DNA of 64,000 bases from Xenococcaceae cyanobacterium MO_188.B29 (GCA_030065155.1 JASJDI010000003.1:962-64961); one strand, 5' to 3'; numbered from the stretch's first letter, positions 8,689-62,974 are shown. Program-made: numbers and translations. The notes: generated from the letters alone by a model not told the origin.

Positions 8689-8740
8689 GGCTGTTTTTGG
8701 CGAGGGGTAGGCAACAGACAAAAAGTTTGGCGATCAATCT

Positions 8741-16609: not shown

Positions 16610-16671
16610 ATAATATTTTTTAATCAGGAGTGAGTTAAATATTATCTAGAGTAATAATCAATTTTCTGTGC

Positions 16672-46190: not shown

Positions 46191-46213
46191 TTAGATTACT
46201 AGCCTTCGGGTTT

Positions 46214-47647
46214 TCACCGAATTCTTGAAGCGCGTTTCCGCTTGTGGGAAAACCCCTTCTTAGCTATTGCCAAAAATTCATCTTCCAACATAACCTCAAG
46301 CTCTCTGTTAGAGAGGCTAAAATAGCTATGCCGTCTTAAACATAGCTGTTTATTCAGTTTTTTATTGAGCGTGTGCCATGCATTCCAGACGTGCTTTCCC
46401 ATCGTCATGATAGGATAGGCGACCTGAAGAGGCACACGCTCTGATAGTCTCATCGCCCTACGAGCGAGAACAAGTGCTGCTGCTGTATCAGAACTCATTC
46501 CGTACAGTTTAAGATATTTTACTAATCCCATCAAAGAACTATATGCTGGTGAAACAAATATTATTTCTACTCCCACATTTTGTGCTTTTTGGGTTAATAA
46601 TTCTGTTATCTTGCCGTAGCTAAAATTAGAGAGCATACGGCACGTAGCAGTTCCTTTCTCTCTCATTTGTGCCTTCTTAGCCGTAAAATCTAATTTTTCT
46701 ACCACTAAAGGACATTTATTTTTAACGCAAAGATTAACAATTTTTAGGCAGACATTATGAAGTATTGCTAACTGTTGATTTTGGCTTTTTGAGTGCAGAT
46801 TAAACTTGATTTGTCCTTTTTCTCTTAGATTCCCATCTCTATCTATTCTGGCATAACCAATCACATTTGGATTTATATCTATCCCCATGCAACCATAATA
46901 TCTGGAATAGCTAATCTTCTCTGGTTCTGGCACTTCTGTGGAACAAGCAATAAACCATCTCAAATTTTTGGCATAGATCCGATAAGTTAATGCTCGATTA
47001 TGTTTAATCGCATCTTCTATCCATTCTGGTTTGTATGGGAAACTTAGAGGGGCATGAATATATTTTCCATACTTGGCTTCTAAAGCATAAGGCACTCTAA
47101 AAATTATCTTACTGCCATCATATTGGGCTATTTGATTGCCAAAACTTTCATCTTTGCTACCAACAGTTAAATATTGAGTTTTCTTTTGCCCAATTTTTAC
47201 TTTCAATGGAGCATCTTTAAGATGGTCAAGCTTATTCTCTAATAAATATAATCTGCGTTTTTTATTATGGATAGCAAACTTTTTATTTTGACGACAACTT
47301 CTTCTCGTTCTTAGGTCACAAGCTACGGGAATAGTTTTTATTTTTTTCTGCTGTTTCTTTAGCCAAGATTTAGTAGATTTTATTTGGTCTTTAATTTTCT
47401 TGATATGTTCTTGTCTACACTCATTAGCCGATTTTATACTAGCTTTTGCTTCTATTCTAATCCCGTTAGCTTGTCGTTTATTTATCCCATATTTGGGCTG
47501 AATCTCTTTAATTATTAGGCGTTCTTTCTCTCCTACTAATAGTCTATTTATATATTCACAACGGGCAGGATATACTAACCGCGCTACATCAGCCATGAAT
47601 TGATGTAGATGCCTTGGTAGTTCTGTCACGGTAGTTCTTTGAGACAT
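46214..47647 (-). CDS. TnpB-related IS200/IS605-family accessory protein (RuvC-like, no Zn finger)
   Basis: 477 aa. GIDINPN (RuvC-I), VVEKLDF (RuvC-II), VSPAYSSLMG...SSDTAAALVLARRA (RuvC-III). Immediately downstream of a serine-recombinase fragment, the IS607 gene order. Confidence 0.7.
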   Translation of the reverse strand: MSQRTTVTELPRHLHQFMADVARLVYPARCEYINRLLVGEKERLIIKEIQPKYGINKRQANGIRIEAKASIKSANECRQEHIKKIKDQIKSTKSWLKKQQKKIKTIPVACDLRTRRSCRQNKKFAIHNKKRRLYLLENKLDHLKDAPLKVKIGQKKTQYLTVGSKDESFGNQIAQYDGSKIIFRVPYALEAKYGKYIHAPLSFPYKPEWIEDAIKHNRALTYRIYAKNLRWFIACSTEVPEPEKISYSRYYGCMGIDINPNVIGYARIDRDGNLREKGQIKFNLHSKSQNQQLAILHNVCLKIVNLCVKNKCPLVVEKLDFTAKKAQMREKGTATCRMLSNFSYGKITELLTQKAQNVGVEIIFVSPAYSSLMGLVKYLKLYGMSSDTAAALVLARRAMRLSERVPLQVAYPIMTMGKHVWNAWHTLNKKLNKQLCLRRHSYFSLSNRELEVMLEDEFLAIAKKGFSHKRKRASRIR

Positions 47648-47648
47648 T

Positions 47649-47921
47649 TTATTCTTGACTTAGACTCGCAATTATTCTATCACCTTCTGCTTGTAAACTT
47701 TCCATTAGTTTACGATTTTTCTTGCTTCTACTTCCGTAAAGTCTTGCACTAAATACTGTTATTATTTCTAAGACATCAGCAGCTAATTCTTCTTCAAAAC
47801 TCGGCTGTTCTCCTTGATGAATTATTACTATTTCTATTCCTTGTATTTCACATAATGCAAACACCAATTCTGAGCCAAATCTAAGCAGTCTATCTTTAGC
47901 TGTTAAAACTAATCTTTTCAT
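47649..47921 (-). pseudogene. tnpA: IS607-type serine recombinase TnpA, C-terminal fragment only
   Basis: 90 aa. KDRLLRFGSELVFALCEIQGIEIVII...EEELAADVLEIITVFSARLYGSRS matches the C-terminal part of IS607 TnpA. The N-terminal HTH and catalytic Ser region are absent (in-frame stop 5 codons upstream of the ATG). Confidence 0.65.
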
Positions 47922-48151
47922 TTGGCGATGTAGATGCTAATTCAATTTTGCTTTGATAGATATCTGCATAAGTCCACTTTAACTAAACCTATATAAATCA
48001 AAGAGCTAGCTGGAAATATATATGTAAGATTACATTTTGTTTCTTCTGTCAAGCTTAAGTTTGTCTTTCAAAATCACTTTTTTCTACTTATCTCGAACGG
48101 TTTTTTGAGCATGAGATGTATCTATTTAGTTTTAAGTTTTAAGTGACATTA

Positions 48152-49678
48152 ATGAAACCAAAAACAAGCAGAAGAAGCAGGGGTGTAATTCTCACCCTCG
48201 AAGGCTGGGATAAACTTCAAGCAGCCAAAAGTGAAGCCGAGTTTGAGGATAATACTGGGGGTGAACGATTTTCTTTGGAAGAACTTAGCGATCGCATGAG
48301 TTTATCACTGCACACTGTCTCCAGAATATTGGGGCGATCGGAACCAGTAGATAAAGGTTCGTTGCAAAAAGCCTTCGCTGCCTTTGGATTGGAATTGTCT
48401 AAAAGCTATTATACTCAACCTACTCCCCCATGTGACGATTTAGAAACCCGACAGGCTTCTCCAATGTATGACTGGGGAGAAGCACCCGATACTTCTATAT
48501 TTTACAATCGCTATGAGGAAATATCGCAATTACGACATTGGGTCTTAGAAGAAAGGTGTCGTTTAATAACATTGCTGGGAATTGGTGGTATTGGCAAAAG
48601 TACTCTAGCAGTAAAATTGGGGTTGCAAATTCAAGATGAATTTGAGGTAGTGGTGTGGCGAAGTCTGCAAAATGCACTACCAGTCGAAGATAAGCTTACA
48701 GATATACTGCAATTTTTGCTGTGGGCATTGCGAAAAGAAATGGTAATACCCCAGAACTTTGAGGGAAAACTATCGAAGCTGATAGAGTGTTTGGTAAATC
48801 ACCGTTGTCTGCTGATTTTAGATAATTTCGAGACAATTTTATCTAGGAAGAGTCAAGTAGGACAATGTCGTCTTGGCTACGAAGGATATGGTCAATTAAT
48901 CAAACTGATTGGAGAAGTACCTCATAACAGTTGTGTTTTCCTGACTTCCAGAGAAAAACCAAGAGCAATTTTACCTTTAGAAGGAGAAAGAACAAAAGTT
49001 AAATGTTTGCAGCTAGGAGGGTTAAATTCTCACGACGGACGGGAGTTATTCGAGCAAAAAGGACATTTTACAGGTACAGAACAAGAATGGAAAGTACTCA
49101 TAAAGCACTATGGTGGTAATCCCCTGGCGTTGAAGATAGTAGCAGCAGGGGCAAAGGAGCTTTTCAATGGTAAAATTTCCTCGGTTTTAGACTATTTGGA
49201 ACAGGGGGCATTTATTTTTGAGGAAATAGGCGACTTATTAGAATACCAGTTCCAACGTTTATCGGTAGTGGAAAAAGAGGTAATATATTGGCTGGCAATT
49301 AATCGAGAACCAGTATCCCTAGATGAATTAGCTGCCGACCTAGTTACATTTTCGTCCAAACATCAGTTACTCCACGCCATTAAATCATTATTGCAAAGGT
49401 CGTTGGTTAATAAGAACGGTGAGCATTTCTTTCTCCAACCAGTAGTACTAGAATACACTACACAGCGATTGGTCGATCGAATTTGTCAAGAATTAGTAGA
49501 AAAAAAGCGGATATCTTTACGCTTGTTTAAAAACCATGCCTTAATTAAGACAACATCTAAAGACCACATTCGGGAGACACAAAAGCAACATATTATACAG
49601 CCATTACTCGAAAAACTGTTAGTAGAGTTGGGCAGCCAGAAGACACATATAATCTTTCTTAGAAATTACTTAAGTTGA
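48152..49678 (+). CDS. HTH + NB-ARC (STAND) NTPase, apparently 3'-truncated (no repeat sensor domain)
   Basis: Track ORF starts at GTG 48143; ATG 48152 (MKPKTSRR) is preferred. N-terminal HTH-like region (LSLEELSDRMSLSLHTVSRIL), Walker A LLGIGGIGKSTLA, Walker B LLILDNFE. The ORF stops about where WD40/TPR arrays usually begin in this family. Confidence 0.7.
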   Translation: MKPKTSRRSRGVILTLEGWDKLQAAKSEAEFEDNTGGERFSLEELSDRMSLSLHTVSRILGRSEPVDKGSLQKAFAAFGLELSKSYYTQPTPPCDDLETRQASPMYDWGEAPDTSIFYNRYEEISQLRHWVLEERCRLITLLGIGGIGKSTLAVKLGLQIQDEFEVVVWRSLQNALPVEDKLTDILQFLLWALRKEMVIPQNFEGKLSKLIECLVNHRCLLILDNFETILSRKSQVGQCRLGYEGYGQLIKLIGEVPHNSCVFLTSREKPRAILPLEGERTKVKCLQLGGLNSHDGRELFEQKGHFTGTEQEWKVLIKHYGGNPLALKIVAAGAKELFNGKISSVLDYLEQGAFIFEEIGDLLEYQFQRLSVVEKEVIYWLAINREPVSLDELAADLVTFSSKHQLLHAIKSLLQRSLVNKNGEHFFLQPVVLEYTTQRLVDRICQELVEKKRISLRLFKNHALIKTTSKDHIRETQKQHIIQPLLEKLLVELGSQKTHIIFLRNYLS

Positions 49679-49782
49679 AATTAACTTGCTAAAGTTGCCT
49701 GGTACAAATAGAAAAAATTTGGCAACTTTAAATAATTAAGGGGAAATATTATCAATCTTTGGTGAAGAGTTTGCCGTAACTA

Positions 49783-52700
49783 ATGTTAAAGTTAACCAGA
49801 TATAGATTAAATATTGTTTTTGCATTAGGGTTAATCGCGCTCATTCCCTTTCCTGGAATGGCTCAGATTACGCCTGATGATACGTTGGGGAATGAAAGAT
49901 CGCAGGTCAACCGCAATGTCCAGGTCAGGGGCGGGAATGCCGATCGAATTGAGGGTGGAGCGACACGAGGCGCGAATCTGTTCCACAGTTTTCGAGAGTT
50001 TAACGTGAATGAGGGGCAGCGGGTTTATTTTGGCAATCCCTCTGGAATTGCTAATATTCTCGGTCGGGTGACGGGCAGGGATGTATCTGACATTATGGGT
50101 ACGCTGGGTGTGGATGGGGATGCGAATCTGTTTTTGCTCAATCCCAATGGCATTATTTTTGGACCAGATGCCCGTTTAGATATTAGTGGATCGTTTGTTT
50201 CCAGTACGGCAAATAGTTTTACGTTTTCCGATGGGACTGAGTTTAGTGCGACCAATCCAGGAAACTCGTCTCTGTTAAGTGTGAATGTGCCGTTGGGGGT
50301 GCAGTATGGACCGAATGCTCCAGGAGCGATCGCCAATGCTGGAACTCTATCTGTAGGACAGAACTTTACGTTGTCTGGGGGTAGCGTCACCAGTACGGGT
50401 CAATTGGCTGTACCGTCAGGGCAGCTTCTAATCGAAGGCGTTGCGGGAGATGTGCGGGTTAGGAATGCCAGCGCACAGACTGCGACTTTCTCGGCTAGTA
50501 ATAACCTGATTTTACAGGATAGTCAGCTTCAGACGGCAGGAGATTTGAACCTGTTGGCAGGTAATACGGTGCAGGTGCGGGATAGCGTGGCAAATCCCTT
50601 CGTTGCTTACTCTGGGGGGAATTTAACGGTTCAAGGCAATCAGGGTATTGATATTTTTGCATTGAATCATCCTTCTAGTGGGCTGGTTTCTGGTGGGGAT
50701 ATGGTGTTGCGATCGGCTAACACGGTAGGAGGAGATGCTCACTATTGGACGGGCGGTAACTTTCGGATCGAGCAATTGAATGGTGAGTTGGGTAGTCTGT
50801 TCAGTCCTTACGATCCTGTAATCCGTTCTATTGGAGATGTCAGTTTTGAGAGTTACGAAGGAGCTTCCTTGCATATTTTTGCGGGAGGAAGTGTGACTAT
50901 CGGTGGTAATGTAAGGATTACAGGTGTGGATGCAATGAATGGAATTTCTGATTCATTCAGTTTGGTAGACCCAAGCGATCCCACTGTTACAGTACCAGTA
51001 GATATTGATGGCGCATCTTTTCCAACACTCGATATCCGAGCAGGGATTACTGACAGCTCATTACTCACACCATCCCTGACACCAGAGACTAACTTTCCAG
51101 GGACAGGTACTCTCTCCCCTAATAATACACCTTCTTTAAATGAAGACCCTATTGGCTCAACTATTAGGATAGGTAGTATTACGAATCGTTCTCCTGGTGG
51201 TAGAGGACAAGTTCTTCTTACAAATCAGTATAGAAGTGATGGCTCAGTTCCAGGTTTAATTGAAATTACAAGTGGAATCATAGATCCACAAGCTACTAAT
51301 TTAGGTTCTCAATCTATTAGTGCCTATGGTAGTGATGTCATGATCGTATCTAGCGGTAATGTCAGAATTGCTAATGGTGCGATTACTGGTTCTGGTGGTA
51401 GTGACGGTGGTAGTATTCAAATCTATAGTGGTGATAGCATTACAACCGACAGCTTGCAATCGCTAGCTAATAATGGAAATGGTGGTAGTGTTACTCTTAG
51501 TTCGCTTGGCACTATTATGGCGGGCAATATAGTTTCTGTCACTACCGCCAACGGAGAAGCTGGCGGAGAAATCACCATCACAGCTAATGGCGGAGATATT
51601 AGGACAGGAGCTATTCGATCATTTGTCGGAAATTATGATAATGACACAGATGTATCAACTGGAGGTACTGGCAACGCAGGCGATATCAGATTAGATGCTC
51701 CCAATGGTCTCATTGATGTCAATGGTCGAATTGCCTCTTTTACAGGCAGTGGTAATGCCGGTAATATAAGCCTTAATGCTAGAGGTAATGTTGAAATCTT
51801 TTCTGCTCGATCGTTTGTAGGAAGCTATGATCCATCTAAAAATACAGATGAAAATCCCAGCGGTGGGGTTGAAACTGGAATTGGAAGTGCAGGAAACATT
51901 ACTATCAGCTCTTCAATCGGAGATATTACGTTAGATCCTAACGGTCCAAGAGATTTATTAGCCTTTAGCCGTGACTCTACTGAATTTAGTACGATTAGAC
52001 TTGATGCAGAACAAGGCTCTGTAACTCTAGATAGAGCAACATTTAATACCACAAATGAGGGTTCTGGTAATGCAGGTGATATTTATATTGGTGCTGAAGA
52101 TGAAATCAGGATTGTTAATAATAGCACAATCTCAACTGATGGAAACTTCGGACGAGTTTTTCTCGGACCAAACAGCGATGAACCAGACATTACATCCCCT
52201 CAGAGGATCACCATCACTGATAGTAGGATTACTGCGACTGAAAACATTGATACTGAGGATATTGTGGCAGGTGATATTTATATTGGTGCTGATGATGAAA
52301 TTCAACTTAACAACAGCGAAATCTCAACTGATGGAAACTTAGGGCGAATTTTTCTCGGACCAAACAGCGAAGAGCCAAACATCACCTCACCTCAGAGGAT
52401 CGCCATCACCAATAGTAGGATTACAACAAGATTAGAAGAAGAAGCAACTGGCACCAGTGGCGATATTAAAATCACTGCCGACTCATTTCGCCTCACAGAT
52501 GGTGCTCAATTATCTAGCAGTACTTTTGGAAATGGAGATGCTGGTGCGATCGAGATTAATGCTGAATATGAGGTGCTTATCACTGGAGCTGACACAGACA
52601 TCTTCAATCAAATTACGAGAAATGCAACTGGAGACGGCGGTAGTATTACAATCACTACAAACTCATTTGAACTCTCTGAAGGTGCCGAATTATCTGCCAG

Positions 52701-53973
52701 TACTTTTGGAACTGGAAATGCTGGTGCGATCGACATTAATGCTGAAGATGAGGTGGTTCTCTCTGGAGCGACTATTTTTAACAATGTGGAAGAAGGGGGA
52801 GTCGGTAACGCAGGAGATATTGATATTGATACCCCATCACTTACATTAAGCGATGGTGCTGAAATCCAATCTCTTGTGCGTGCGGGGAACATTAATACTC
52901 AAGAAGAAAGAGAAAGTCGTGTAAATGGAGGCACGATTACTGTTAAAGCTCGTGACATCGTCCTAAAGGATAAGAGCCAGTTTTTCACCCGTATAGAAGA
53001 GAATTCGGTAGGTACTGGTGGTAATATTAAAATTAATGCAAACTCACTTCGTATCAAAAATAACCTCACAGATACGGATAATAAAATATTTACAGTTTTG
53101 GATGCTCAAGCATTTAATGACTCAAGTAGTGCTGGAAGCATAACGATCGATGCTGACCAATTTAATCTCCAAAACAGCGGAGTGACAGTCAGCAATACAC
53201 AAGGAAAGGCAGGTAGTTTAAGCATTACAGCCAATTCTATTGAACTAGATAAAAGTGAACTATCGGCGATCGCTGGCGAGGGTGATTTAGGCAATATCGA
53301 AATAGAACTGTTAGGAACGCTGCTCCAGCTTTATGACAATAGCCTAATCTCAGCAGGCGCTGAGGGGGTAGGCAGTGGGGGTGACCTCACCATCAATGCA
53401 GAAAATGGTTTTGTGCTAGCCAATCCATATGGTAACAGCGATATCCTTGCTAATGCCTTTGAAGGAAACGGTGGTAACATCACCATCACAACCAACGCTA
53501 TTTTCGGTCTAGAAGAACGCAATCCTTTAACTGATTTAAGCGATATTAATGCTGACTCAGAATTTAATACACCAGGCAATATTGTCATCGATACGCTGAA
53601 CATCGATCCCACCCGAGGACTCAGTGAACTGCCGATCGAAATTGTTAATGCTGCCGATCTCGTTGCTGAAGGGTGCATTGGCAGCAACCGCAGTGGCGTT
53701 GAGTCTCAAGGAGAATTTACCCGCACCGGGCGAGGTGGGCTATCTCCCGATCCGACTGGCACCCTCACCGATGAATCGTTAATCGAGCGCTCTACCCCAG
53801 CGGATACAGACAATCGCTCTGGTACCGTTCCCTCAGAAACCTCCCCTCAGCCTTTGGTCGAAGCCCAGGGGTTAGCCCGCGATGCCAGCGGCAAAGTTTC
53901 CCTTGTCACCTATTCTACCAATCCCACAGTGCCCTCGCCCCTATTCAGCCCCAATACTTGCGATGCTCCCTAA
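49783..53973 (+). CDS. Two-partner-secretion exoprotein (TpsA) with filamentous-haemagglutinin N-terminal TPS domain and beta-helical repeats
   Basis: 1396 aa. Signal peptide. TPS domain motifs GANLFHSFREFNV, NILGRVTG, ANLFLLNPNGIIFG. Then hundreds of residues of G/N/S/T-rich beta-helix repeats with internal tandem duplications. Confidence 0.9.
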   Translation: MLKLTRYRLNIVFALGLIALIPFPGMAQITPDDTLGNERSQVNRNVQVRGGNADRIEGGATRGANLFHSFREFNVNEGQRVYFGNPSGIANILGRVTGRDVSDIMGTLGVDGDANLFLLNPNGIIFGPDARLDISGSFVSSTANSFTFSDGTEFSATNPGNSSLLSVNVPLGVQYGPNAPGAIANAGTLSVGQNFTLSGGSVTSTGQLAVPSGQLLIEGVAGDVRVRNASAQTATFSASNNLILQDSQLQTAGDLNLLAGNTVQVRDSVANPFVAYSGGNLTVQGNQGIDIFALNHPSSGLVSGGDMVLRSANTVGGDAHYWTGGNFRIEQLNGELGSLFSPYDPVIRSIGDVSFESYEGASLHIFAGGSVTIGGNVRITGVDAMNGISDSFSLVDPSDPTVTVPVDIDGASFPTLDIRAGITDSSLLTPSLTPETNFPGTGTLSPNNTPSLNEDPIGSTIRIGSITNRSPGGRGQVLLTNQYRSDGSVPGLIEITSGIIDPQATNLGSQSISAYGSDVMIVSSGNVRIANGAITGSGGSDGGSIQIYSGDSITTDSLQSLANNGNGGSVTLSSLGTIMAGNIVSVTTANGEAGGEITITANGGDIRTGAIRSFVGNYDNDTDVSTGGTGNAGDIRLDAPNGLIDVNGRIASFTGSGNAGNISLNARGNVEIFSARSFVGSYDPSKNTDENPSGGVETGIGSAGNITISSSIGDITLDPNGPRDLLAFSRDSTEFSTIRLDAEQGSVTLDRATFNTTNEGSGNAGDIYIGAEDEIRIVNNSTISTDGNFGRVFLGPNSDEPDITSPQRITITDSRITATENIDTEDIVAGDIYIGADDEIQLNNSEISTDGNLGRIFLGPNSEEPNITSPQRIAITNSRITTRLEEEATGTSGDIKITADSFRLTDGAQLSSSTFGNGDAGAIEINAEYEVLITGADTDIFNQITRNATGDGGSITITTNSFELSEGAELSASTFGTGNAGAIDINAEDEVVLSGATIFNNVEEGGVGNAGDIDIDTPSLTLSDGAEIQSLVRAGNINTQEERESRVNGGTITVKARDIVLKDKSQFFTRIEENSVGTGGNIKINANSLRIKNNLTDTDNKIFTVLDAQAFNDSSSAGSITIDADQFNLQNSGVTVSNTQGKAGSLSITANSIELDKSELSAIAGEGDLGNIEIELLGTLLQLYDNSLISAGAEGVGSGGDLTINAENGFVLANPYGNSDILANAFEGNGGNITITTNAIFGLEERNPLTDLSDINADSEFNTPGNIVIDTLNIDPTRGLSELPIEIVNAADLVAEGCIGSNRSGVESQGEFTRTGRGGLSPDPTGTLTDESLIERSTPADTDNRSGTVPSETSPQPLVEAQGLARDASGKVSLVTYSTNPTVPSPLFSPNTCDAP

Positions 53974-56086
53974 ATATTTTGCCTCTACTATCCATCTCTT
54001 AACCATCACTCTTGCCCTAGTCACCCTGAACTCGGTCTGCAAATCCCTGGAAGTGCAAGCCACCGAGTTAATGGACGGGTCTGACTATTCCCCACGACAG
54101 CCAACCCAGTCATCGGCAGGTAAATTTGCCGTTACCACCTCTCCTATCTTAGTTGCTCAAGCTTTTCCCAATCTTTCTCAAGATCTTCCCCGCGATATCC
54201 CGCCTCAGAGCATTCCCCGCGATCCCTCTCCAGACACAGAACCCCTGCCCACAGAACCTCCAACTCCTTTACCGCCTCCCGAACAACTACTTCAACCCTC
54301 TGAATCATCTCCTATTGCCCCTGACGTTACACCTAGCACAGCACCCCAAACCGTTTTTGTTGAAGAGTTTAGCGTCGTAGACAGCACTGTATTTGATGCC
54401 GATGAACTCGCTACCCTGGCTTGGCAAGCCACCACTTTAGACTCAGACACCGCGATCCCCGATTTAATTCGCTCTTATTTAGATTCAGATGCTGCGATCC
54501 CCGATTTTTGTAAAGATGATTCACGCTCTGACTCTTCAGAAACACCTGCCGAAGCATCTCAAGACACAGAAGATTCAGAAGACAGAGCAAGTACAATAGA
54601 CGCTCGAGCTTCCCCATCGCAGGAAACCACTGCTACCAATATAACCAATGTGTCTAGTACCCCAAAAAAAGGATGGGAACTCAGCTTCGAGCAACTCCTG
54701 CGGGCACGGTCTACTATTACTCAGCTTTATATCAAATGCGGTTACATTACCTCAGGCGCGATCCTGCCTCCGCAAACGCCAGAAGCTGAAAACAATGTAG
54801 TAGAGATTAAGATAGTTGAAGGTAGACTGGAAGACATTGAAGTTACAGGGTTACGACGACTCAATCCTGGCTATGTTCGCAGTCGCCTCGCCATTGCTGG
54901 ATCGGAACCACTTAACCGAAAACAGTTAGTGCGAGGATTGCAACTGCTGCAACTGAACCCGCTGATTCGCCGTATCTCCGCCGACTTGCAAACAGGAACT
55001 CGTCCTGCTACCAGTATTTTACGTGTAGAGGCTACCGAAGCTGATTCCTTTGATGTTACATTTGATTTAAATAACAATCGATCGCCCAGTGTTAGCAGTT
55101 TCCAACGGGGCATCACCTTCAACCAGGCAAACCTGTTAGGTTTTGGGGATGGCTTAAGTGTCACCTACGATAACACTGACGGTAGTAACAAGATTAGCAG
55201 CAGATATATCATCCCAGTCAATCCTCGCAATGGCACCCTGGCTTTTAGATATGACTACATCAACAGCGATGTGGTTGAATCCCCCTTTGACGTTTTAGAT
55301 ATTGAAGCAGAGTCTTCTTACTACGAAGTTACCTTTAGGCAACCAGTCTTCCAGATTCCCACTGAAGAATTTGTGCTGGGGCTGACCTTCTCGCGCCAAG
55401 AAAGCCAGACTGAGGTTGGATTCGACGATATTGGACCTTTTCCCCTCTCTCTAGGTGCAGATGAAGAAGGACGAACTAAAGTTTCCGCGATTCGCTTCAC
55501 CCAAGAATGGCTCAAGCGTACTCCCAGACAAGTACTGGCAGCTCGCTCTGAATTCAGCCTGGGACTCGATTTATTTGATGCTACTATCAATGATGACCCT
55601 TTACCAGATGGTCGCTTTTTTGTGTGGAGAGGACAAGGGCAATGGGTGCGTCAATTGAATGATTCAGGACTGCTGTTGCTGGTGCGTGGCAATGTACAAC
55701 TCACAGGGGATTCTCTGGTTCCTTTTGAGCAGTTTGCACTAGGAGGACAAGACACGATTCGTGGTTATCGTCAGGATGAATTAACAAGCGACAATGGAGT
55801 CTATGGTTCGGTTGAAGTCCGATTTCCAGTTTTACGTTTTAGCCAGAGGCAGGGCATATTCTACCTAATTCCTTTTTTCGATGTCGGTACGGGTTGGAAT
55901 AATGAATTCTCAGATAATCTGGAAGATACAACATTGGTAAGCACGGGGATCGGTTTGGGCTTGGACATCGGCGATGACCTGAGGGCACGAGTAGATTGGG
56001 GAATTCCACTAGTTTCTATAGATAGAGAGGAGCAAACATGGCAAGAAAACGGAGTATATTTTTCCATTCAATATTCACCTTTTTAA
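53963..56086 (+). CDS. ShlB/FhaC/HecB-family TpsB outer-membrane transporter with long Pro-rich N-terminal extension
   Basis: ATG 53963 (MLPKYFAST..., signal-like) is preferred over the track start 53882 and overlaps the tpsA stop by 11 nt. POTRA-like region (VVEIKIVEGRLEDIEVTG). C-terminal beta-barrel ending ...YFSIQYSPF. Confidence 0.85.
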   Translation: MLPKYFASTIHLLTITLALVTLNSVCKSLEVQATELMDGSDYSPRQPTQSSAGKFAVTTSPILVAQAFPNLSQDLPRDIPPQSIPRDPSPDTEPLPTEPPTPLPPPEQLLQPSESSPIAPDVTPSTAPQTVFVEEFSVVDSTVFDADELATLAWQATTLDSDTAIPDLIRSYLDSDAAIPDFCKDDSRSDSSETPAEASQDTEDSEDRASTIDARASPSQETTATNITNVSSTPKKGWELSFEQLLRARSTITQLYIKCGYITSGAILPPQTPEAENNVVEIKIVEGRLEDIEVTGLRRLNPGYVRSRLAIAGSEPLNRKQLVRGLQLLQLNPLIRRISADLQTGTRPATSILRVEATEADSFDVTFDLNNNRSPSVSSFQRGITFNQANLLGFGDGLSVTYDNTDGSNKISSRYIIPVNPRNGTLAFRYDYINSDVVESPFDVLDIEAESSYYEVTFRQPVFQIPTEEFVLGLTFSRQESQTEVGFDDIGPFPLSLGADEEGRTKVSAIRFTQEWLKRTPRQVLAARSEFSLGLDLFDATINDDPLPDGRFFVWRGQGQWVRQLNDSGLLLLVRGNVQLTGDSLVPFEQFALGGQDTIRGYRQDELTSDNGVYGSVEVRFPVLRFSQRQGIFYLIPFFDVGTGWNNEFSDNLEDTTLVSTGIGLGLDIGDDLRARVDWGIPLVSIDREEQTWQENGVYFSIQYSPF

Positions 56087-58824
56087 GAACTATTTCACAA
56101 CGAGCGATTGGGTCATGGACAAGAGTATTTTCCGTTGCCCATCGCTCCACTCTGGCGATTTATGTTTTGCTGGCAGTTTTGACCGCCTTGATTTGTACAA
56201 CGGCTTTACCTGGGTTTGCCAGAATCACAATCGCCCAAACTACTGTTCGAGCTGCGCCAGCGCAAACTGAAGCCCAGAAGTTGGAGAAACAAGGCAGAGA
56301 GTATTATAAGACTGGGCATTTTAGTGAAGCTGCTGCAGTTTTTAAACAAGCTGCCATCCTGTATCAACGGTTAGGCAGTATAGAGCAATCCGCAGAGAGT
56401 AGGATTAACCAGGCGAGGGCACTCCAGGCTTTGGGGCTATACAACCAGGCGATCGCGGTTTTGCAGAAAGTGTTGCAAGACCCAGAGCAACCCACCCCCC
56501 TATTACAAGATTTGAATGTTGAAGTAAGGTGTTCGGAGGACAATCTTGTTCTCAATCCATTGCGGGGACGGCTAGAAGCTTTACCCGTCTCATCCAACAA
56601 TGCTGCAATTACTGCTGCTGCCCTACGAGGTTTAGGAGATGCCCTACAAGTGGCAGGAAATTTGGAGGAGTCTTGTACGATTTTGCGTTACAGTCTAGAA
56701 CTTGCCAAAACCCAGTCACTGACTGATGCTATTGCTCCGACCTACTTGAGCCTGGGTAACTTGGCTCGCACCCAGGCGATCGAAAATCTGCGATTAAATA
56801 ATTTGACCACCGAGCAGGCAATTGCCCAACTCCAGAGACAACTGAGTCCAATTCAGCAAGAATTACAGCGTCGTCAGACCGAAGCTGCTCAACAGTTTAT
56901 GAACCAAACGGGAACGGCTCTGGACTACTATCAGCAAGCTGCTAACGATTCCACAAGACTAATTCAAGCCCAAGCCCAACTCAATACCCTAAGCTTACTT
57001 CTAGACAGGCAAGAGTGGTCAGAAGCCACTAACGCTATTCCGCCACTCTATCCCCTGCTTAACAGTCTTCCTCTCAGTCGCTCGGCGATCAAAGCTAAAA
57101 TTAATCTTGCCCACAGCCTGATGCGAATGGCAGAGGGACAATTGGAACCTGCTGCTCGTTCTCCTTCATCCGATTACATGGGGCAAGCTGCCCAACTGCT
57201 AGCGATCGCTCGGCAACAGGCGAGCGATTTGGACATTGCCCAGACCGAATCCTATGCCTTGGGAAGCCTGGGAGAGCTATATGAACGCACACAACAGTGG
57301 TCGGAAGCAAAAGCCTTGACCCAGCAGGCTTTGGAGAAGGTCAACTCCGTTTCGGTCACAAACTTACCTCATACCGTCAGTGATGCCGACCTGACCTACC
57401 GTTGGTACCGTCAGTTAGGTCGAATTCTCATTGCCCAAGGTGATAGAGAGGGGGCGATCGAAGCCTACGAAACGGCAGTAAAGGTGCTGCAAGAGCGTCT
57501 GCGGTTGGATATAGCCTCTAGCAATCTGAACTACCAATTATCCTTCAATCAGAAGGCTCAAGAACCCGTACATTTAGAATTGATGGATTTGCTGTTGCAA
57601 CCAGAGGAACCAAGCCAGCAGAATTTACAGCAGGTACGTGAGATCGTTTCCGCATTACTTGAAGCAGAATTGACAAGCTTTCTGAACGAACCTTGTGCTA
57701 TTGCAACGCCCGATCAACTTGACACAATCGTTCGAGAAAAGGCACAGCGAACCGCTATTTTCTATCCCCTTATTTTACCCGATCGTTTGGAAACGATCGT
57801 TAAGTTACCTGACGATCAGGAACTTATTCACTACCGTCATTTTATTCCCAAGGATCGGCTGTTGGAAAAGCTCAACAAACTTCAACTTGCCCTTGAGGAA
57901 GACTATACCTTTGAGGCAGTAGAAAATCTTTCTCAACAATTTTACGCCTGGATTGTTCAACCAGCAGAAGAGCTACTAAAAACCAACCAGGTAGACACGC
58001 TCGTTTTCACGCTCGGTCGCCAACTCCAGACGATTCCGATGGCAGCTCTGTATGATGGTGAAACCTATCTAATCGATAAATATGCGGTCTCTGAGTTTTT
58101 GGGGTTGAGTGTAGGCGGTTCGGTCGAGCGACTACAGCAGGAAGGGTTAAAAGTAATCGCAGCAGGGCTTTCAGATCTGCCTCCCTCGCTTCCAGAAGAG
58201 AGCGAAAACAACTTTCTGCCACTTACCTATGTCAGTAGAGAATTAGACGCGATCAACACCCTTCAAGAAAATGGAATTCCTGTTACTATTCTTAAAGGCG
58301 AGCAATTTGACCTCACGAACTTCAGGACTCTAATGAATGAAGACGAGTTTCCAGTGGTTCACTTAGCAACTCATGGACAGTTCAGTGTCGATCCTCAAAA
58401 GACCTTTTTGCTGACCAGCAATGTCTTGATTAGAGTGAATGACTTGGCTGCCCTGTTTCGGACAAGAGGACAAATTCGACTAGATTCGATCGAGCTACTG
58501 GTACTTAACGCCTGCGAAACAGCTGCTGGAGATAAGTTAGCCACGCTGGGACTAGCTGGTATTACCGTGCGGGCAGGGGCAAGTAGCGCGATCGCTTCTC
58601 TCTGGACGCTGGATGATAGATCCAGTGTTACCTTCACGCGAGAGCTGTACAAAAACCTGCAAATAGCTGATGTCAGCAAAGCAGAGGCACTGCGTCAAGC
58701 TCAACTGAAACTGATGCGCGACCCCCAATATCGACATCCTCGCTATTGGTCGCCCTACATTTTAGTAGGCAACTGGTTGCCTTTAATTTCTTCTCGATCG
58801 GTTGGCTCCGCAGACTCTAGATAG
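56038..58824 (+). CDS. Signal-anchored TPR-repeat CHAT-domain (caspase-like) protease
   Basis: 928 aa. N-terminal hydrophobic helix (LAIYVLLAVLTALICTTALPGFA), TPR-like repeats, and a C-terminal CHAT with His (VVHLATHGQF) and Cys (LVLNACETA) dyad motifs, ending HPRYWSPYILVGNW. Confidence 0.85.
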   Translation: MARKRSIFFHSIFTFLRTISQRAIGSWTRVFSVAHRSTLAIYVLLAVLTALICTTALPGFARITIAQTTVRAAPAQTEAQKLEKQGREYYKTGHFSEAAAVFKQAAILYQRLGSIEQSAESRINQARALQALGLYNQAIAVLQKVLQDPEQPTPLLQDLNVEVRCSEDNLVLNPLRGRLEALPVSSNNAAITAAALRGLGDALQVAGNLEESCTILRYSLELAKTQSLTDAIAPTYLSLGNLARTQAIENLRLNNLTTEQAIAQLQRQLSPIQQELQRRQTEAAQQFMNQTGTALDYYQQAANDSTRLIQAQAQLNTLSLLLDRQEWSEATNAIPPLYPLLNSLPLSRSAIKAKINLAHSLMRMAEGQLEPAARSPSSDYMGQAAQLLAIARQQASDLDIAQTESYALGSLGELYERTQQWSEAKALTQQALEKVNSVSVTNLPHTVSDADLTYRWYRQLGRILIAQGDREGAIEAYETAVKVLQERLRLDIASSNLNYQLSFNQKAQEPVHLELMDLLLQPEEPSQQNLQQVREIVSALLEAELTSFLNEPCAIATPDQLDTIVREKAQRTAIFYPLILPDRLETIVKLPDDQELIHYRHFIPKDRLLEKLNKLQLALEEDYTFEAVENLSQQFYAWIVQPAEELLKTNQVDTLVFTLGRQLQTIPMAALYDGETYLIDKYAVSEFLGLSVGGSVERLQQEGLKVIAAGLSDLPPSLPEESENNFLPLTYVSRELDAINTLQENGIPVTILKGEQFDLTNFRTLMNEDEFPVVHLATHGQFSVDPQKTFLLTSNVLIRVNDLAALFRTRGQIRLDSIELLVLNACETAAGDKLATLGLAGITVRAGASSAIASLWTLDDRSSVTFTRELYKNLQIADVSKAEALRQAQLKLMRDPQYRHPRYWSPYILVGNWLPLISSRSVGSADSR

Positions 58825-59741
58825 AGCTGATTATCTGGAATATGAAAATAAGCTAATAAATTTCTCCAGGTACTCCGATTGATAATTGAAAACTGGCGCT
58901 GAGTTTTGACTAGCGAATTTACGGTATCAAACCAAATTCCGTTCTCGGCATAAACCATATACTGCTCAAAAAGAGGCGCATTTTTCAGGGCGGTTTGTAA
59001 TTCTTCCGTAGGTTCTATCCGTTGCACCCATCCCCGTACCACAGGATTTTTAGAAAGTTTTTCAGCATCACAAATCACAGAGAAGTACCAGCTATAAAGC
59101 TTATCTGTCTCCAAGGTATAGGGCAACAGATACTCAACCAAACGCGGATTCTCTAACAGATCGACAGACATCAGCTCATTCCAAACTGGATGCTCGGTTT
59201 CGTCTAACAGAACAAATTGGGCAACGATGCGATTTGGTGGTGTTTCAGGAGTTGAGATGTAAGGCAGATAAAACCAGAAAGTTGGCTGTGCTTCCAGGGT
59301 TAAACCTCCGACAGCTCCAACATCAGCATCTAAATCGGTCTGTTGCAGCTGTTCCTCATCTTCTGTTGTCTGGAGAGCTACTAGGGCTGTAACAGATTGA
59401 TTGAGCTCAGTTTGCCGATCTCGATCGTCTGGATCGATCTGAGTCAATGCACAAATCGGTCCCCGTCCTGCGCCTCCTACTCTTCGACCTATAGGTGCTG
59501 TACCACGCTGGGGAGGGCTGTACAATCCAGTTCGTTCGAGTAGCTGTTTGAAGACAGAAACAATATCTTGAGCGTGAGCAACTGGAATTAACCTATGGGT
59601 AAGCGTATTATTTTGAGAAACGGGAAATAAAGGAAACAAAAGAAAGCTTGTAACTATAAAAGCGAGTGTCCAGGACAGCATTTTTGCCCTAATTAATCCT
59701 TTAAGCCAAGTCATCATAAGTGTAAAAACCTTAATCATCAT
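58755..59741 (-). CDS. DUF928-family exported protein
   Basis: 328 aa. N-terminal hydrophobic signal, then the family-typical PPQRGTAPIGRRVGGAGRGPIC motif. Confidence 0.7.
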   Translation of the reverse strand: MMIKVFTLMMTWLKGLIRAKMLSWTLAFIVTSFLLFPLFPVSQNNTLTHRLIPVAHAQDIVSVFKQLLERTGLYSPPQRGTAPIGRRVGGAGRGPICALTQIDPDDRDRQTELNQSVTALVALQTTEDEEQLQQTDLDADVGAVGGLTLEAQPTFWFYLPYISTPETPPNRIVAQFVLLDETEHPVWNELMSVDLLENPRLVEYLLPYTLETDKLYSWYFSVICDAEKLSKNPVVRGWVQRIEPTEELQTALKNAPLFEQYMVYAENGIWFDTVNSLVKTQRQFSIINRSTWRNLLAYFHIPDNQLYLESAEPTDREEIKGNQLPTKM

Positions 59742-59751
59742 TTGTTTATTG

Positions 59752-61875
59752 CTATTTCACATTAGGATTTAGCTTGAGGCGTTGATTAGCCCACCAAATA
59801 TAGCTACTGGTTGCCGACTGTGCTAAAAAATGAGGCATTAGGGGTACCCAACCATTAAAGTGAAAAAACACCATGCTAATAACCACAACGGTACCACCGC
59901 TAATAACAATCAAAATTCCTAACTCCGGCAACGATGTCAACCACCATCCGACTCCACCTCCTACAAGTGCAAAAATAAAAATTAACAAGAGATCTACTCT
60001 TCTAGGTAAAACCCAGATTAAGGTATCCTTCTTTTCCGCAACATCAATAATTTGCTCGATCATCTGAGCCTGTACGATAACTCCTGGTGTGACTTCGTCA
60101 TGACCTTGGTCGTAAGGGGTTCTCCAATTATCACTAATGCCATCTGAGCGATCGATACCAATCATCACAATGGGTTTATTGAAGTCTTTAGCTGGAAAAT
60201 CTGGCTTCAAGAATTCTTCTAAGGTTACGGCTTTATATTCTTGGTCTTTTTTTTGTTCTCGATATTTCAAAAGTATCTGACATCCATTGAACAGATCGCT
60301 GGCACTACCAGAATAACCTTGGTATCCCCCTGTATTAGGTTGTAGGTTTGTCAAAACTACACCATTACTAAATTGGATTTGGCAAGTTTCTTTGGAAACC
60401 TTGTCTTCAGGGTTAATCTTTTTTTTCCTTTGCAGATAGCGTTCTGCTAATAATAAACTAAAAGACTTGGTTGATGAACACCTTGGATGAGTTTTAGGAT
60501 CGTTATAAAAAGCTAAAAGCTGACGCCGAAGAATGCCGTCCTTGTCCTGTGAAAAGTCGCTAAATCCCACCCGAGCTGGTGTCACACCAGGTGGTGGCGA
60601 GATTCCTTCAGGGTCTTTCTCGTCTCCTGCTTTACAAACAGCAAATAGATTGGGTTGCTGAAAAAGAGTACTCAAAGTTTGCTTGGCGATTCGATCTTTT
60701 TCGGTAGCTGACGCCGATCGAGCAACTGGGGTTTGTCCAGCAGAAGCCGTGGGTTGAACATTTAAAGTTTGCTCACGATAAATATCTAAGCCGATTGCAA
60801 TTGGCTCAAGCTTCTGCACCTTTTGTAGCAAATTAACAAGCGTTACATTCGAGAGTGAATAAGTCATCACCTCCCCTCGTTTTTCCTGTGCCTCAGCATC
60901 CTGCTTCGTAATCTTGATAATTAAAAAGCGATCGCTTGGCTTTGGTGGATTGAATTGGTTCCGCATCAAAGAATCATAGAAACCGAGTTCAAAGGGTTGA
61001 AAGACTTGAAAAGCCCGAATCAGGATAACCAGAGCCGTCATACCTATGCTTGCAAAGAGAACTGTACGAGGTTTACAGCGAACCAGAGGAAGAAGACTAC
61101 TCCAGTCACGATTCTTTTGATGAAATTTTGCCTGTTTATCTTTCAGGTTACTTATTTTCGCCAGGATGGTGACAGCAGAGATTGCTTCTCCCCCCGATGT
61201 ATTGTTAGAATCACGTGTAAACTTGACGATGCCACAAACTTTACAAGTTTGTTTATTTAACAAGGGTGAACTTCTTAAAAGGGGCAAATCATCTTGATTC
61301 GATCTAAATTTAATGATGGTTAGGTCATCTTCAGTCCGATCTTGGCTCACTTCTTCAACAACGTAGCTCCCCTCTTTAGAATTCCCGTCTGAATAGCCAT
61401 AAGTATAAAGTTCGTCCTTTGGCTGAACTGCTTTATTATCCAAATAAACGCAGGGATGGTTAGAATTAGCAGGAAGGTCGAACTTTAATATTGCTAAATC
61501 GACCGAGTTAAACCTATCGTATACAGCGGCTTTAGCAAAGTTTTCTTGATTTTGACAACATACAACGATGTTATAGATGTTATCGTCTGCTCCTTTTACC
61601 TCATGAGCACAGGTCAGAATCAATCCAGGAGCAATAAAAAATCCTGTAACCCATCCAGACTTACCTGGAATGCTCAGCTTGACTGTACAGGATTTCAGCA
61701 ATTCGTTCAGCTTTGCCTTGTTTTCATCTGTCGAAATCTGCTGAACAATTGTGGGCTGGTTTACAGTAACAGATGTTCCCTGGATGACATTTAATTTGTT
61801 GTCATGTCCTTGTATCTCAATATCGCCAAAGCTTTGCCACTGATTCTGCTGCCGATCCTCATGATCTTGGTTCAT
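59752..61875 (-). CDS. CHASE2 sensor protein with N-terminal cytoplasmic trypsin-fold domain and no C-terminal output domain
   Basis: 707 aa. Residues ~60-250 are trypsin-like (LILTCAHEV His, SVDLAILKF Asp, degenerate Ser motif LLRSSPLLN). TM at ~271-289. CHASE2 hallmarks (FELGFYDSLMR, FLIIKITKQD, IAIGLDIYRE, DKDGILRRQLL). Three C-terminal TM helices, then the stop. Confidence 0.8.
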   Translation of the reverse strand: MNQDHEDRQQNQWQSFGDIEIQGHDNKLNVIQGTSVTVNQPTIVQQISTDENKAKLNELLKSCTVKLSIPGKSGWVTGFFIAPGLILTCAHEVKGADDNIYNIVVCCQNQENFAKAAVYDRFNSVDLAILKFDLPANSNHPCVYLDNKAVQPKDELYTYGYSDGNSKEGSYVVEEVSQDRTEDDLTIIKFRSNQDDLPLLRSSPLLNKQTCKVCGIVKFTRDSNNTSGGEAISAVTILAKISNLKDKQAKFHQKNRDWSSLLPLVRCKPRTVLFASIGMTALVILIRAFQVFQPFELGFYDSLMRNQFNPPKPSDRFLIIKITKQDAEAQEKRGEVMTYSLSNVTLVNLLQKVQKLEPIAIGLDIYREQTLNVQPTASAGQTPVARSASATEKDRIAKQTLSTLFQQPNLFAVCKAGDEKDPEGISPPPGVTPARVGFSDFSQDKDGILRRQLLAFYNDPKTHPRCSSTKSFSLLLAERYLQRKKKINPEDKVSKETCQIQFSNGVVLTNLQPNTGGYQGYSGSASDLFNGCQILLKYREQKKDQEYKAVTLEEFLKPDFPAKDFNKPIVMIGIDRSDGISDNWRTPYDQGHDEVTPGVIVQAQMIEQIIDVAEKKDTLIWVLPRRVDLLLIFIFALVGGGVGWWLTSLPELGILIVISGGTVVVISMVFFHFNGWVPLMPHFLAQSATSSYIWWANQRLKLNPNVK

Positions 61876-61882
61876 GATTAAT

Positions 61883-62974
61883 CTACCCTACCCAAGCTTT
61901 TACTATAAGAGCCTCTACCTTTGCTACTGGTTCTGCCAAAGTCAATAATTCCTGCAATCCCTGCTTTAGAGCATCAACTACCTCATTAATAAAACTCTTG
62001 TCTGGCTTCGGTTTCTGTAACTCCTCCTCAAGCATCTCGATCTTTGATTCCGTATCCTTCTTCGTAAAGGTACTTAGCCCATCCGTTGCTGCAACCTGCT
62101 TTTTTAGCTTTGCCAATGCGTCCAATGCGGCTTCCAAGTCCGTATTTCCGCCTGTGGTTTGAGTGTTAGTTTGAGTCACGTTGACATTCCCCGTCGATTG
62201 GATCGCGTTCAATGGATTGTTACTACCGCTGAATGTAATGTTGCCAAAGGTTTGCGACTGTTTAACTGGTGGTTTTGGTTGCGGTGCAGGTACAGTCACT
62301 GGCGGATCTGAATCCGGGGGGGGTGTCTTGATATTAAAAGGATCGTCGCTTCCTCTCCTATTATCAAGAACCGGGGTTAACGATTCTGGAATGCTATGGA
62401 GATCGAGACTATTCCGAGCTAATTGATAGGCAAAATTAAAAGAATCTCCCCGCGCCAATGCTTGATAAAATACTCTGGCAAACTCGATCGCTGCTCGATC
62501 GCCGATCGCTTTATTCATTCCCACCACGCAATCAATATGTTGATGAATTGCCTTGGCTTGCATCTCGGAATAACAGGCATTCAACACCACACATTTCACA
62601 TCGTTCTCCAATAGCTTAAATAAACCAGCCAGAGCATCGGTGCTCACCAGTGTTGCTCGTCCCTGGTCATCCTCAAGCACCAATCCCTCTGGTTCAGGAG
62701 CGTCTTCTGGAAATGGACTCAGCTTTCGAGTTGTGCTATCGTCCTGAGAGCCAGTACCATGACCAGAGAAATGAACAATATGCGGTTTGTGGTCTAGTAG
62801 AGCGCGGGACAAGTCCCTCACCCGAACCGCCCATTGGCTGATAAGTTCAAAGCGATCGCGGTATTTAGCTCGTTCCAGTTCTTCCTGAATCGAACGAACC
62901 TCCTCATCCAATCGTAGTTGAGAGGTATTCACTGGATTTACTGCAAGAACCAAAATTTTTATCTTAGAGTTCAT
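61883..62974 (-). CDS. Small cytoplasmic CHAT/caspase-like protease with Pro-rich linker and helical C-terminal extension
   Basis: 363 aa. His motif HIVHFSGHG, Cys motif VVLNACYS, linker PPPDSDPPVTVPAPQPKPP, then FGNITFSGSNNPLNAIQSTGNVNVTQ and an amphipathic helical tail. Stop lies 7 nt upstream of the CHASE2 gene. Confidence 0.8.
   Translation of the reverse strand: MNSKIKILVLAVNPVNTSQLRLDEEVRSIQEELERAKYRDRFELISQWAVRVRDLSRALLDHKPHIVHFSGHGTGSQDDSTTRKLSPFPEDAPEPEGLVLEDDQGRATLVSTDALAGLFKLLENDVKCVVLNACYSEMQAKAIHQHIDCVVGMNKAIGDRAAIEFARVFYQALARGDSFNFAYQLARNSLDLHSIPESLTPVLDNRRGSDDPFNIKTPPPDSDPPVTVPAPQPKPPVKQSQTFGNITFSGSNNPLNAIQSTGNVNVTQTNTQTTGGNTDLEAALDALAKLKKQVAATDGLSTFTKKDTESKIEMLEEELQKPKPDKSFINEVVDALKQGLQELLTLAEPVAKVEALIVKAWVG

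Follow-up and report, generated by a model that had tools for sequence, protein, structure and literature searches.

Gene content and domain architecture of the cluster

We analyzed a stretch of 64,000 nucleotides (nt) of DNA, hereafter the window, from Xenococcaceae cyanobacterium MO_188.B29 (GCA_030065155.1, JASJDI010000003.1:962-64961), with positions counted from its first letter. The window carries a cluster of genes encoding a receptor with a CHASE2 domain, a DUF928 protein, two CHAT proteases and a two-partner secretion (TPS) pair. Comparison with related loci suggests that this region would be one copy of a conserved cyanobacterial sensing module spanning the cell envelope. Seven open reading frames (ORFs) had been listed in a preliminary description of the same DNA. 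All seven were reproduced at the same coordinates, with exactly the same overlaps and gaps, and independent gene calls in the two public assemblies carrying the cluster contain the same genes. Every domain named for these ORFs, including the families for which a Pfam scan had been proposed, passed the curated Pfam cut-offs.

Three genes of the cluster are encoded on the plus strand. The tpsA gene (49783-53973) encodes a 1396-aa TPS exoprotein (Pfam TPS, 1.9e-47; NCBIfam adhes_NPXG). It is followed by tpsB (53963-56086), whose ORF opens at 53882 and whose ATG start is called at 53963. The TpsB protein (707 aa as called) is an Omp85-type outer-membrane transporter with a POTRA_2 domain (1.9e-10) and a ShlB barrel (3.8e-23), and it also matches Omp85 (1e-14). 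The third gene (56038-58824) encodes a 928-aa TPR-CHAT protein, which is predicted to be exported and signal-anchored and contains TPRs and a CHAT domain (Pfam CHAT, 3.7e-50). The overlaps are 11 nt between tpsA and tpsB and 49 nt between tpsB and TPR-CHAT. The ATG start of TPR-CHAT at 56038 has GGAG just upstream. A later start that would abolish the 49-nt overlap was considered and rejected, as the candidate codon is GTA, which is no start codon.

The minus strand carries the small CHAT gene (61883-62974; 363 aa, cytoplasmic; Pfam CHAT, 3e-13), then after 7 nt the gene of the trypsin-fold-CHASE2 receptor (59752-61875; 707 aa; Pfam CHASE2, 6.9e-46), and after a further 10 nt the gene of the DUF928 protein (58755-59741; 328 aa, periplasmic; Pfam, 1.1e-36). 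The convergent 3' ends of TPR-CHAT and DUF928 overlap by 70 nt. An N-terminal hydrophobic export segment was detected in each of TpsA, TpsB, TPR-CHAT and DUF928, and no hydrophobic segment was detected anywhere in the small CHAT. Together with one plus three transmembrane (TM) helices in the receptor, this hydrophobicity analysis agrees with the topology described previously. Promoter and terminator scans of the window gave scores no higher than expected from shuffled sequence and have no bearing on operon structure.

TpsA contains a Sec signal peptide with a hydrophobic N-terminus ending in PGMA/Q, a TPS domain (aa 27-279) with an NPNGI motif, and beta-helix repeats. A TPS domain and a signal peptide on TpsA, with an adjoining tpsB encoding POTRA and ShlB domains, are the marks of two-partner secretion, and we infer that TpsA is secreted through TpsB. 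The last part of TpsA forms a module of about 140 aa (53560-53970) with the motifs DPxRGL..LP, a Cys, F-x-x-TGRGGLPPxP, VEAQGW and a terminal Cys. This module matches no Pfam family and is common to the TpsA proteins of loci L006, L009, L028, L039, L071 and others. It may be the part of TpsA that contacts TPR-CHAT.

The CHAT domain of the exported TPR-CHAT (aa 631-912) contains the catalytic dyad His (VHLATHG) and Cys (LNACET), and both residues are invariant in 27 relatives. The N-terminal hydrophobic segment of the window protein lies at aa 39-57, and such a segment is present in 97 of 109 TPR-CHAT relatives. TPS and CHAT domains are fused in one protein in L014 (Pfam) and in L051 (jackhmmer call only), and these fusions tie TpsA to CHAT as a Rosetta-stone link. 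Locus L014, from a Caldora metagenome-assembled genome (MAG; 97-16778), contains two separate DUF928-CHAT pairs. One of its CHAT proteins is a TPR-CHAT adjoining a TpsA gene, and the other CHAT domain is the C-terminus of a 1755-aa TPS protein.

Such fusions are relevant to an alternative in which the cluster serves contact-dependent competition, with TpsA or a TPS-CHAT fusion delivering a protease to neighbours and DUF928 acting as a periplasmic immunity protein. The CHAT domains of L014 and L051 sit where CdiA-type proteins carry their toxin, and L014 has one DUF928 gene for each CHAT gene. However, no toxin domain was found on the window TpsA, whose sole Pfam domain is TPS, and its C-terminus is a conserved module, not a polymorphic one. 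The layout also differs from that of contact-dependent inhibition systems in that the gene downstream of tpsA is tpsB. DUF928 does not lie downstream of tpsA on the same strand, is tied to CHASE2, and is found together with CHASE2 at loci where no exported CHAT is nearby. Among the explanations weighed here, we regard this one as the least likely.

In the DUF928 protein, a signal peptide (..VAHA/QD) and a linker precede a beta-sandwich (aa 141-241), which is followed by a helical bundle (aa 246-298). Across the 34 aligned DUF928 members, an N-terminal hydrophobic segment is always present, the R-G-x-x-C in the linker is invariant, and a second Cys is near-invariant. The AlphaFold2 (AF2) model, with a predicted local distance difference test score (pLDDT) of 80.7, likewise contains a beta-sandwich followed by a helical bundle. 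The modelled fold would fit a binding module and names no ligand. We read DUF928 as the putative cognate partner of the CHASE2 receptor because of the adjacency and co-variation of the two genes described below. We also considered whether R-G-x-x-C of DUF928 and TGRGGLP of the TpsA C-terminus represent a common 'GRG' cleavage site. This idea was dropped because many Nostoc TpsA proteins have Ser, His or Ala in place of the Arg, and because the surrounding sequences are different.

The receptor comprises a cytoplasmic N-terminal part, a first TM helix (aa ~269-289), the CHASE2 domain (aa 281-640) and three C-terminal TM helices (625-701). The CHASE2 domain lies between the first and the C-terminal TM helices and is thus predicted, by TM analysis and the AF2 model (pLDDT 81.7), to face the periplasm. 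A Foldseek search with the whole receptor model returned trypsin-fold matches only, including MucD, MarP, HtrA/HtrA1 and DegS (E ~1e-10, TM-score ~0.75), and the CHASE2 part drew none. These matches correspond to the trypsin/HtrA-fold domain (61156-61728, minus strand; aa ~50-240; Pfam Trypsin_2, 1e-09).

In this domain His91 and Asp126 are kept according to the alignments, and the GxSGxP nucleophile motif reads LLRSSP (Gly199 to Leu, Ser201 to Arg, Gly202 to Ser). The G-x-S-G is kept in all 18 family members aligned with it. The trypsin-CHASE2 proteins fall into two groups. One subgroup has an intact triad, and the clade of the window protein has widely lost His, Asp or Ser; in relative L003 both His and Asp are lost. 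The trypsin-fold domain of the window is probably not a protease, because its catalytic Ser is Arg and its own clade is decayed, and it probably represents a pseudoprotease serving as a scaffold. The designation of the cluster as a 'multi-protease' module was therefore an overstatement. In L166, a Trypco1 gene (9607-10014) is located directly upstream of an intact-triad trypsin-CHASE2 gene, a place held by the small CHAT in the window.

The small CHAT contains a CHAT domain (aa 1-200) with an intact dyad (VHFSGHG, LNACYS) and is the probable effector. A 30-residue motif in its C-terminal half (QSQTFGNITFSGSNNPLNAIQSTGNVNVTQ; 62171-62260, minus strand; aa 239-268) is homologous to an adaptor-like motif found by local alignment at the receptor N-terminus (QWQSFGDIEIQGHDNKLNVIQGTSVTVNQ; 61756-61842, minus strand; aa 12-40), with a score of 62 that was reached in 0 of 2000 shuffles. 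Receptor residues 1-48, which include the motif, are disordered in the model (pLDDT <50). The same sharing between small CHAT and receptor N-terminus was found in L003 (score 87, 0/1000 shuffles) and in L083 (score 62, 1/1000 shuffles). In L171 (Aetokthonos) an 87-residue domain is common to CHAT and receptor, with a score of 244. Neither the small-CHAT C-terminal half nor the receptor N-terminal motif matches a Pfam family, even at E values up to 5. Because both proteins carry the same motif, the small CHAT is expected to be recruited to the receptor, and the shared motif fits an effector docked on its receptor. The window illustrates a way in which a caspase-like effector may be brought to a membrane receptor, via a short shared motif, and this would connect envelope sensing with toolkits for cell death and defence in multicellular bacteria. 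In PADLOC, the small CHAT matches 'chat' (4.8e-18), its helical C-terminal region resembles the candidate PDC-M14B (3.2e-08), and the trypsin domain is similar to the protease portions of Avs1b, LmuA and RT-protease.

Conservation of the CHASE2-DUF928 core in cyanobacteria

Three independent anchors, DUF928, TPR-CHAT and CHASE2, were used to assess the co-occurrence of these families. An alignment search with DUF928 found at least 581 loci in species-representative genomes, and the best 79 were examined, all of which are from cyanobacteria or unclassified MAGs. A CHASE2 gene is located directly upstream of DUF928 on the same strand in 61 of the 66 loci having at least 2.5 kb upstream. Of the 36 DUF928 loci with full flanks, 34 have CHASE2, 26 have DUF1822, 22 have an exported TPR-CHAT, 17 have TpsA and 7 have TpsB. 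The second anchor, the CHAT end of TPR-CHAT, was searched in metagenomes, and of the 80 best-matching loci 49 contain TpsA, 43 DUF928 and 43 CHASE2. Within these loci, DUF928 lies less than 500 nt from TPR-CHAT in 30/43 (p ~2e-29) and TpsA lies less than 500 nt from TPR-CHAT in 36/49 (p ~2e-36), the p values being computed against uniform placement within the flanks. For the third anchor, six CHASE2 proteins of differing architectures, DUF928 is directly downstream in five of six, and DUF928, TPS or TPR-CHAT is nearby in all six.

Over all loci, 106 DUF928-CHASE2 pairs were retrieved, with 105 on the same strand, 102 within 500 nt and a median gap of 16 nt. Adjacency of the families, with varying gene order, is seen throughout Nostocales, Oscillatoriales, Leptolyngbyales and Synechococcales. 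The co-occurrence of the families proposed in the preliminary description was thus recovered far beyond chance, as judged from the gene neighbourhoods around all three anchors. The conserved unit is narrower than the six families named there. Its core consists, on the same comparative basis, of CHASE2 and DUF928, with TPR-CHAT and TpsA as frequent partners and TpsB found less often. Distance matrices from 62 triplets gave a correlation of r = 0.91 between DUF928 and CHASE2 (0.80 as a partial correlation controlling for CHAT), and a partial correlation of 0.21 between DUF928 and CHAT controlling for CHASE2. These matrices support the view that DUF928 and CHASE2 form a putative tight cognate pair.

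Related sets are also carried by two plasmids, each from a laboratory strain. In plasmid alpha of Nostoc sp. PCC 7120 (L162, 335694-344129), the order is TpsA-like, DUF1822, sigma-70 family factor, CHASE2 and DUF928. The set on pNPUN03 of N. punctiforme PCC 73102 (L163, 50659-70127) comprises DUF928, CHAT, TpsA, CHASE2, DUF1822 and a sigma factor.

The cytoplasmic part of the receptor varies widely among relatives. Among the cytoplasmic domains are CHAT, TIR (one or three copies), nSTAND1 together with trypsin, AAA_35 and EAD10, as well as C-terminal domains of the PP2C, GGDEF, adenylate cyclase, His kinase and Ser/Thr kinase types. CHAT is fused N-terminally to CHASE2 in 46 of 65 related receptors; in the window it is a separate gene. 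The genes of the CHAT-type receptors are usually preceded by those of a sigma factor and DUF1822. Neither DUF1822 nor a sigma-like gene was found in the window, where tblastn queries gave nothing better than E = 1. A trypsin-type receptor is present in 2 of the 79 DUF928-anchored loci, and the combination of a trypsin-CHASE2 receptor with a separate small CHAT appears to be a rare variant. It had been noted that proteolysis is the only output here, with no cyclase, kinase or DNA-binding component. This holds for the window locus; the family as a whole includes receptors with cyclase, kinase, GGDEF, PP2C and TIR domains and loci with sigma-factor and DUF1822 neighbours. A caspase-like executioner would therefore be one of many outputs of the module. 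The recurring parts, namely the CHASE2 domain, DUF928, the exported TPR-CHAT and TpsA/TpsB, are all predicted to be extracytoplasmic. Because the cytoplasmic domain varies and the periplasmic set is constant, the module can be read as a general sensor input with exchangeable outputs.

Proposed mechanism and comparison with known systems

In the reading that we propose, the locus is an input module for the CHASE2 receptor, DUF928 is the receptor's cognate partner and the small CHAT is the effector that is recruited; we assign this reading a probability of roughly 0.55. TpsA, exported by TpsB, would act as a surface element. A surface or periplasmic event involving TpsA would change the activity of TPR-CHAT, with the TpsA C-terminal module, or a covalent fusion in some relatives, coupling TpsA to the exported protease. 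TPR-CHAT would then act on DUF928, or DUF928 would otherwise change its state, and the CHASE2 domain would read DUF928 or a DUF928 fragment. The output in the window would be two-part, consisting of the decayed trypsin-fold domain with its docking motif and a separate intact small CHAT. The receptor would activate the docked small CHAT, leading to the cleavage of cytoplasmic targets. Given the island-like and defence-like context, the cell may stop growing or die, or it may show a regulatory response. In this scheme we infer the signal direction, physical contacts, substrates, trigger and phenotype alike. The relay order suggested in the preliminary description, from the filament through periplasmic proteolysis and CHASE2 to a cytoplasmic CHAT, is plausible as an interpretation of the same genes.

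Several points weigh against this proposal. The locus sets are the best ~80 matches of larger lists and lean to close relatives, and the domain calls in the flanks are mostly from jackhmmer, with a Pfam check on samples. TpsB lies within 10 kb in only ~20% of the full-flank loci and is mostly not adjacent. Neither TPR-CHAT nor TpsA lies within 10 kb of about one quarter to one third of the CHASE2-DUF928 pairs, and some DUF928-TPR-CHAT-TpsA sets have no CHASE2. The two halves can thus work apart. The DUF928-CHASE2 correlation can stem merely from adjacent genes being inherited together. The Foldseek search of the DUF928 model against PDB gave weak beta-sandwich matches to carbohydrate-binding module, immunoglobulin and UNC119 folds, none with E ≤0.001. 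In PADLOC no complete known defence system was matched, and all matches were at the domain level. The flow of information could also be reversed, with the receptor regulating the secretion genes.

The sets without CHASE2 are also favourable to a different explanation, namely TpsA maturation or secretion with a stress monitor. Here TPR-CHAT and DUF928 would process TpsA or perform quality control, CHASE2 would monitor or regulate this, and TpsA would be the product, not the antenna. The close spacing of TpsA and TPR-CHAT, the TPS-CHAT fusions and the conserved TpsA C-terminal module, which the TPR domain could bind, are all in line with it. However, TIR, PP2C, Ser/Thr kinase, a docked caspase-like protease and EAD would be odd feedback for one adhesin operon. 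The constancy outside and variability inside argue against a sensor that merely regulates the adjacent adhesin operon. Moreover, DUF928 co-varies far more with CHASE2 than with CHAT, and many CHASE2-DUF928 pairs have no nearby TPS genes. We consider secretion maturation an unlikely explanation of the cluster.

The input-module reading can be taken one step further. TpsA, the exported TPR-CHAT and DUF928 may together form a general signal-generating apparatus, in which the action of TPR-CHAT on DUF928 would make the CHASE2 ligand. We put this forward as a tentative suggestion, which is more likely to prove wrong than right. If true, it would represent a new type of trans-envelope proteolytic relay, plugged into cyclases, kinases, cyclic di-GMP enzymes, sigma factors, TIR domains and docked death proteases.

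CHASE2 has been known as an extracellular sensor domain since 2003. In Leptolyngbya, the CHASE2-GGDEF protein Dgc2 controls motility and biofilm formation, and the study describing it calls CHASE2 ligands unknown and urges a search for binding partners (2023, PMC10581220). The present comparison names candidates for what CHASE2 may sense: DUF928, a near-obligate cognate partner, and, as frequent upstream components, the exported caspase-fold protease and the secreted filament protein. Since receptors of the cyclase and GGDEF types come with the same periplasmic set, the idea is testable by simple second-messenger read-outs. The wider value of the locus would lie in the recurrent CHASE2-DUF928-TPR-CHAT-TpsA association, which makes the question of CHASE2 sensing testable. 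The CHASE2-DUF928 adjacency in N. punctiforme has already been noted in the one paper that mentions DUF928 in the literature searched. No published interpretation of the full set (CHASE2-DUF928-TPR-CHAT-TpsA) was found in the literature searched, and the same search revealed no experimentally defined function for the combination, in agreement with the preliminary description, which was aware of none.

Among known systems, a close parallel is provided by the EACC2-caspase proteins, which have variable C-terminal sensors including CHASE2 and have ECF sigma factor and DUF1822 neighbours (Kaur, Iyer, Burroughs and Aravind, 2021, eLife, PMC8195603). EACC2-caspase-CHASE2 proteins likewise couple a caspase-fold protease to a cyanobacterial CHASE2 TM sensor. 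Many relatives of the window locus have the exact EACC2 arrangement of sigma factor, DUF1822 and CHAT-CHASE2, followed by DUF928. In contrast, the window has a separate CHAT gene and a dead trypsin fold, and has no sigma factor or DUF1822. That paper treats CHASE2 as one among many variable sensor ends. One uninterpreted neighbourhood string in its supplement contains 'TM+beta_rich+TPRs' and 'TPRs+CASPASE' genes, and we read the former as DUF928. DUF928 is absent from the main text, and no discussion of an exported TPR-CHAT or of TPS was found there. In the passages and the supplement that were searched, we found no mention of the same periplasmic set with cyclase, kinase or GGDEF receptors.

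The shared motif resembles the logic of effector-associated domain (EAD) systems, in which a sensor and a neighbouring effector carry the same adaptor, as set out by Kaur et al. (2020, eLife, PMC7159879). CHASE2 and TPS are not mentioned in that paper. In the window, the same non-enzymatic segment is present on the receptor and on the adjacent small CHAT, which suggests homotypic recruitment. Some CHASE2 relatives carry Pfam EAD10, and one trypsin-CHASE2 relative has a Trypco1 gene upstream. Unlike in EAD systems, the window segment is a disordered 30-residue motif outside the Pfam EAD families, and a membrane receptor takes the place of an NTPase as the sensor.

The NsrA-CyaK/CyaD1/CyaD2 pathway of Sinorhizobium meliloti is the only experimentally studied CHASE2 pathway found in the literature searched. 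NsrA is an outer-membrane beta-barrel protein whose gene adjoins a CHASE2 cyclase gene, and it is reported to be required to perceive an external protein-type signal (PMC7529298, PMC13001267). This pathway is also a trans-envelope route into a CHASE2 receptor, a functional parallel with no demonstrated relatedness. It differs from the window module in that NsrA is a single large outer-membrane protein, and DUF928, a TPS exoprotein and a separate CHAT are unreported in the available text. A tblastn search of the CHAT and CHASE2 domains against plasmids gave no Sinorhizobium record among the matches listed, and two alphaproteobacterial CHAT loci inspected contain no TPS, CHASE2 or DUF928 genes.

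The plus-strand operon resembles two-partner secretion systems of the FhaB/FhaC type. In these systems the exoprotein undergoes periplasmic processing, and in Bordetella proteases process the FhaB prodomain. The window shares with them a TpsA with a TPS domain and beta-helix, a TpsB with POTRA and ShlB, adjacent overlapping genes and a protease alongside. It differs in having a caspase-fold CHAT in place of a subtilisin or tail-specific protease, and in that the operon is tied to CHASE2 and DUF928. No adhesin or toxin function is evident for the window operon. An architecture of the same name, with TPR repeats followed by a CHAT protease, occurs in Csx29 of the Type III-E CRISPR Craspase, a cytoplasmic protein that is bound to the Cas effector and switched on by its partner. 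The window TPR-CHAT, in contrast, has an export signal and no CRISPR context, and the two are unrelated in role.

Genomic setting of the cluster

The G+C content of the cluster (49783-62974) is 45.4%, compared with 36.7% for the rest of the window (1-48142), where 13-kb windows have a standard deviation of 1.0 and a maximum of 38.4. This high G+C content suggests recent horizontal acquisition, and the cluster looks like an acquired island within an otherwise housekeeping region. To its left lies mobile-element debris (44994-47921), consisting of an insertion sequence (IS) IS605 OrfB-like fragment (44994-45815), a 477-aa ORF that matches no Pfam family (46214-47647) and a 90-aa fragment (47649-47921) whose weak match to resolvases stays under the Pfam cut-off.

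Unrelated accessory genes often gather in such regions, and the cluster could be part of a mobile island that brings together two unrelated modules, namely a TPS adhesin operon plus its CHAT protease and a CHASE2-DUF928-small CHAT conflict module, in which case the two strands would have no functional connection. This explanation is compatible with the high-G+C island, the IS and resolvase fragments, the toxin-antitoxin genes and the separability of the halves in some genomes. However, the adjacency recurs in four orders, in several gene orders and from three anchors, and DUF928 lies within 500 nt of TPR-CHAT at most loci that have both. The convergent 3' overlap and its palindrome are also kept in the closest relatives. 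A chance assembly of unrelated modules seems very unlikely to us.

The palindrome, AGGCAACTGGTTGCCT, is 16 nt long (58767-58782, no strand) and lies within the 70-nt convergent overlap. It encodes GNWLP at the TPR-CHAT C-terminus on the plus strand and GNQLP at the DUF928 C-terminus on the minus strand, and it also scores as a terminator-like hairpin. An identical palindrome is present at the convergent overlap in L003 and a variant in L082. Because the palindrome encodes both C-termini, the conservation of the two protein ends may be DNA-coupled.

Upstream of tpsA, a STAND NTPase gene (48143-49678, plus strand) encodes a 511-aa protein with HTH-NB-ARC/NACHT domains (Pfam) and without C-terminal repeats. 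Among the 81 loci of the first set, a STAND gene was found at this position only in the window's own contigs, and it does not belong to the conserved module. In L083, the closest metagenomic relative, the gene 5' of tpsA (6-1043) ends in WD40 repeats. The earlier view of the STAND gene as truncated is consistent with its lack of C-terminal repeats compared with this WD40 end; the support is indirect, as the N-terminus of the L083 protein is cut by the contig end.

The chromosomal neighbours at 119-2359 and 34802-37597 include a cellulose-synthase-like glycosyltransferase with PilZ and a protein with GAF and methyl-accepting chemotaxis protein signalling domains. Neither of the two has a link to the cluster. 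To the right of the cluster, just past the end of the window, Uma2 and HicAB genes are present on the longer public contig.

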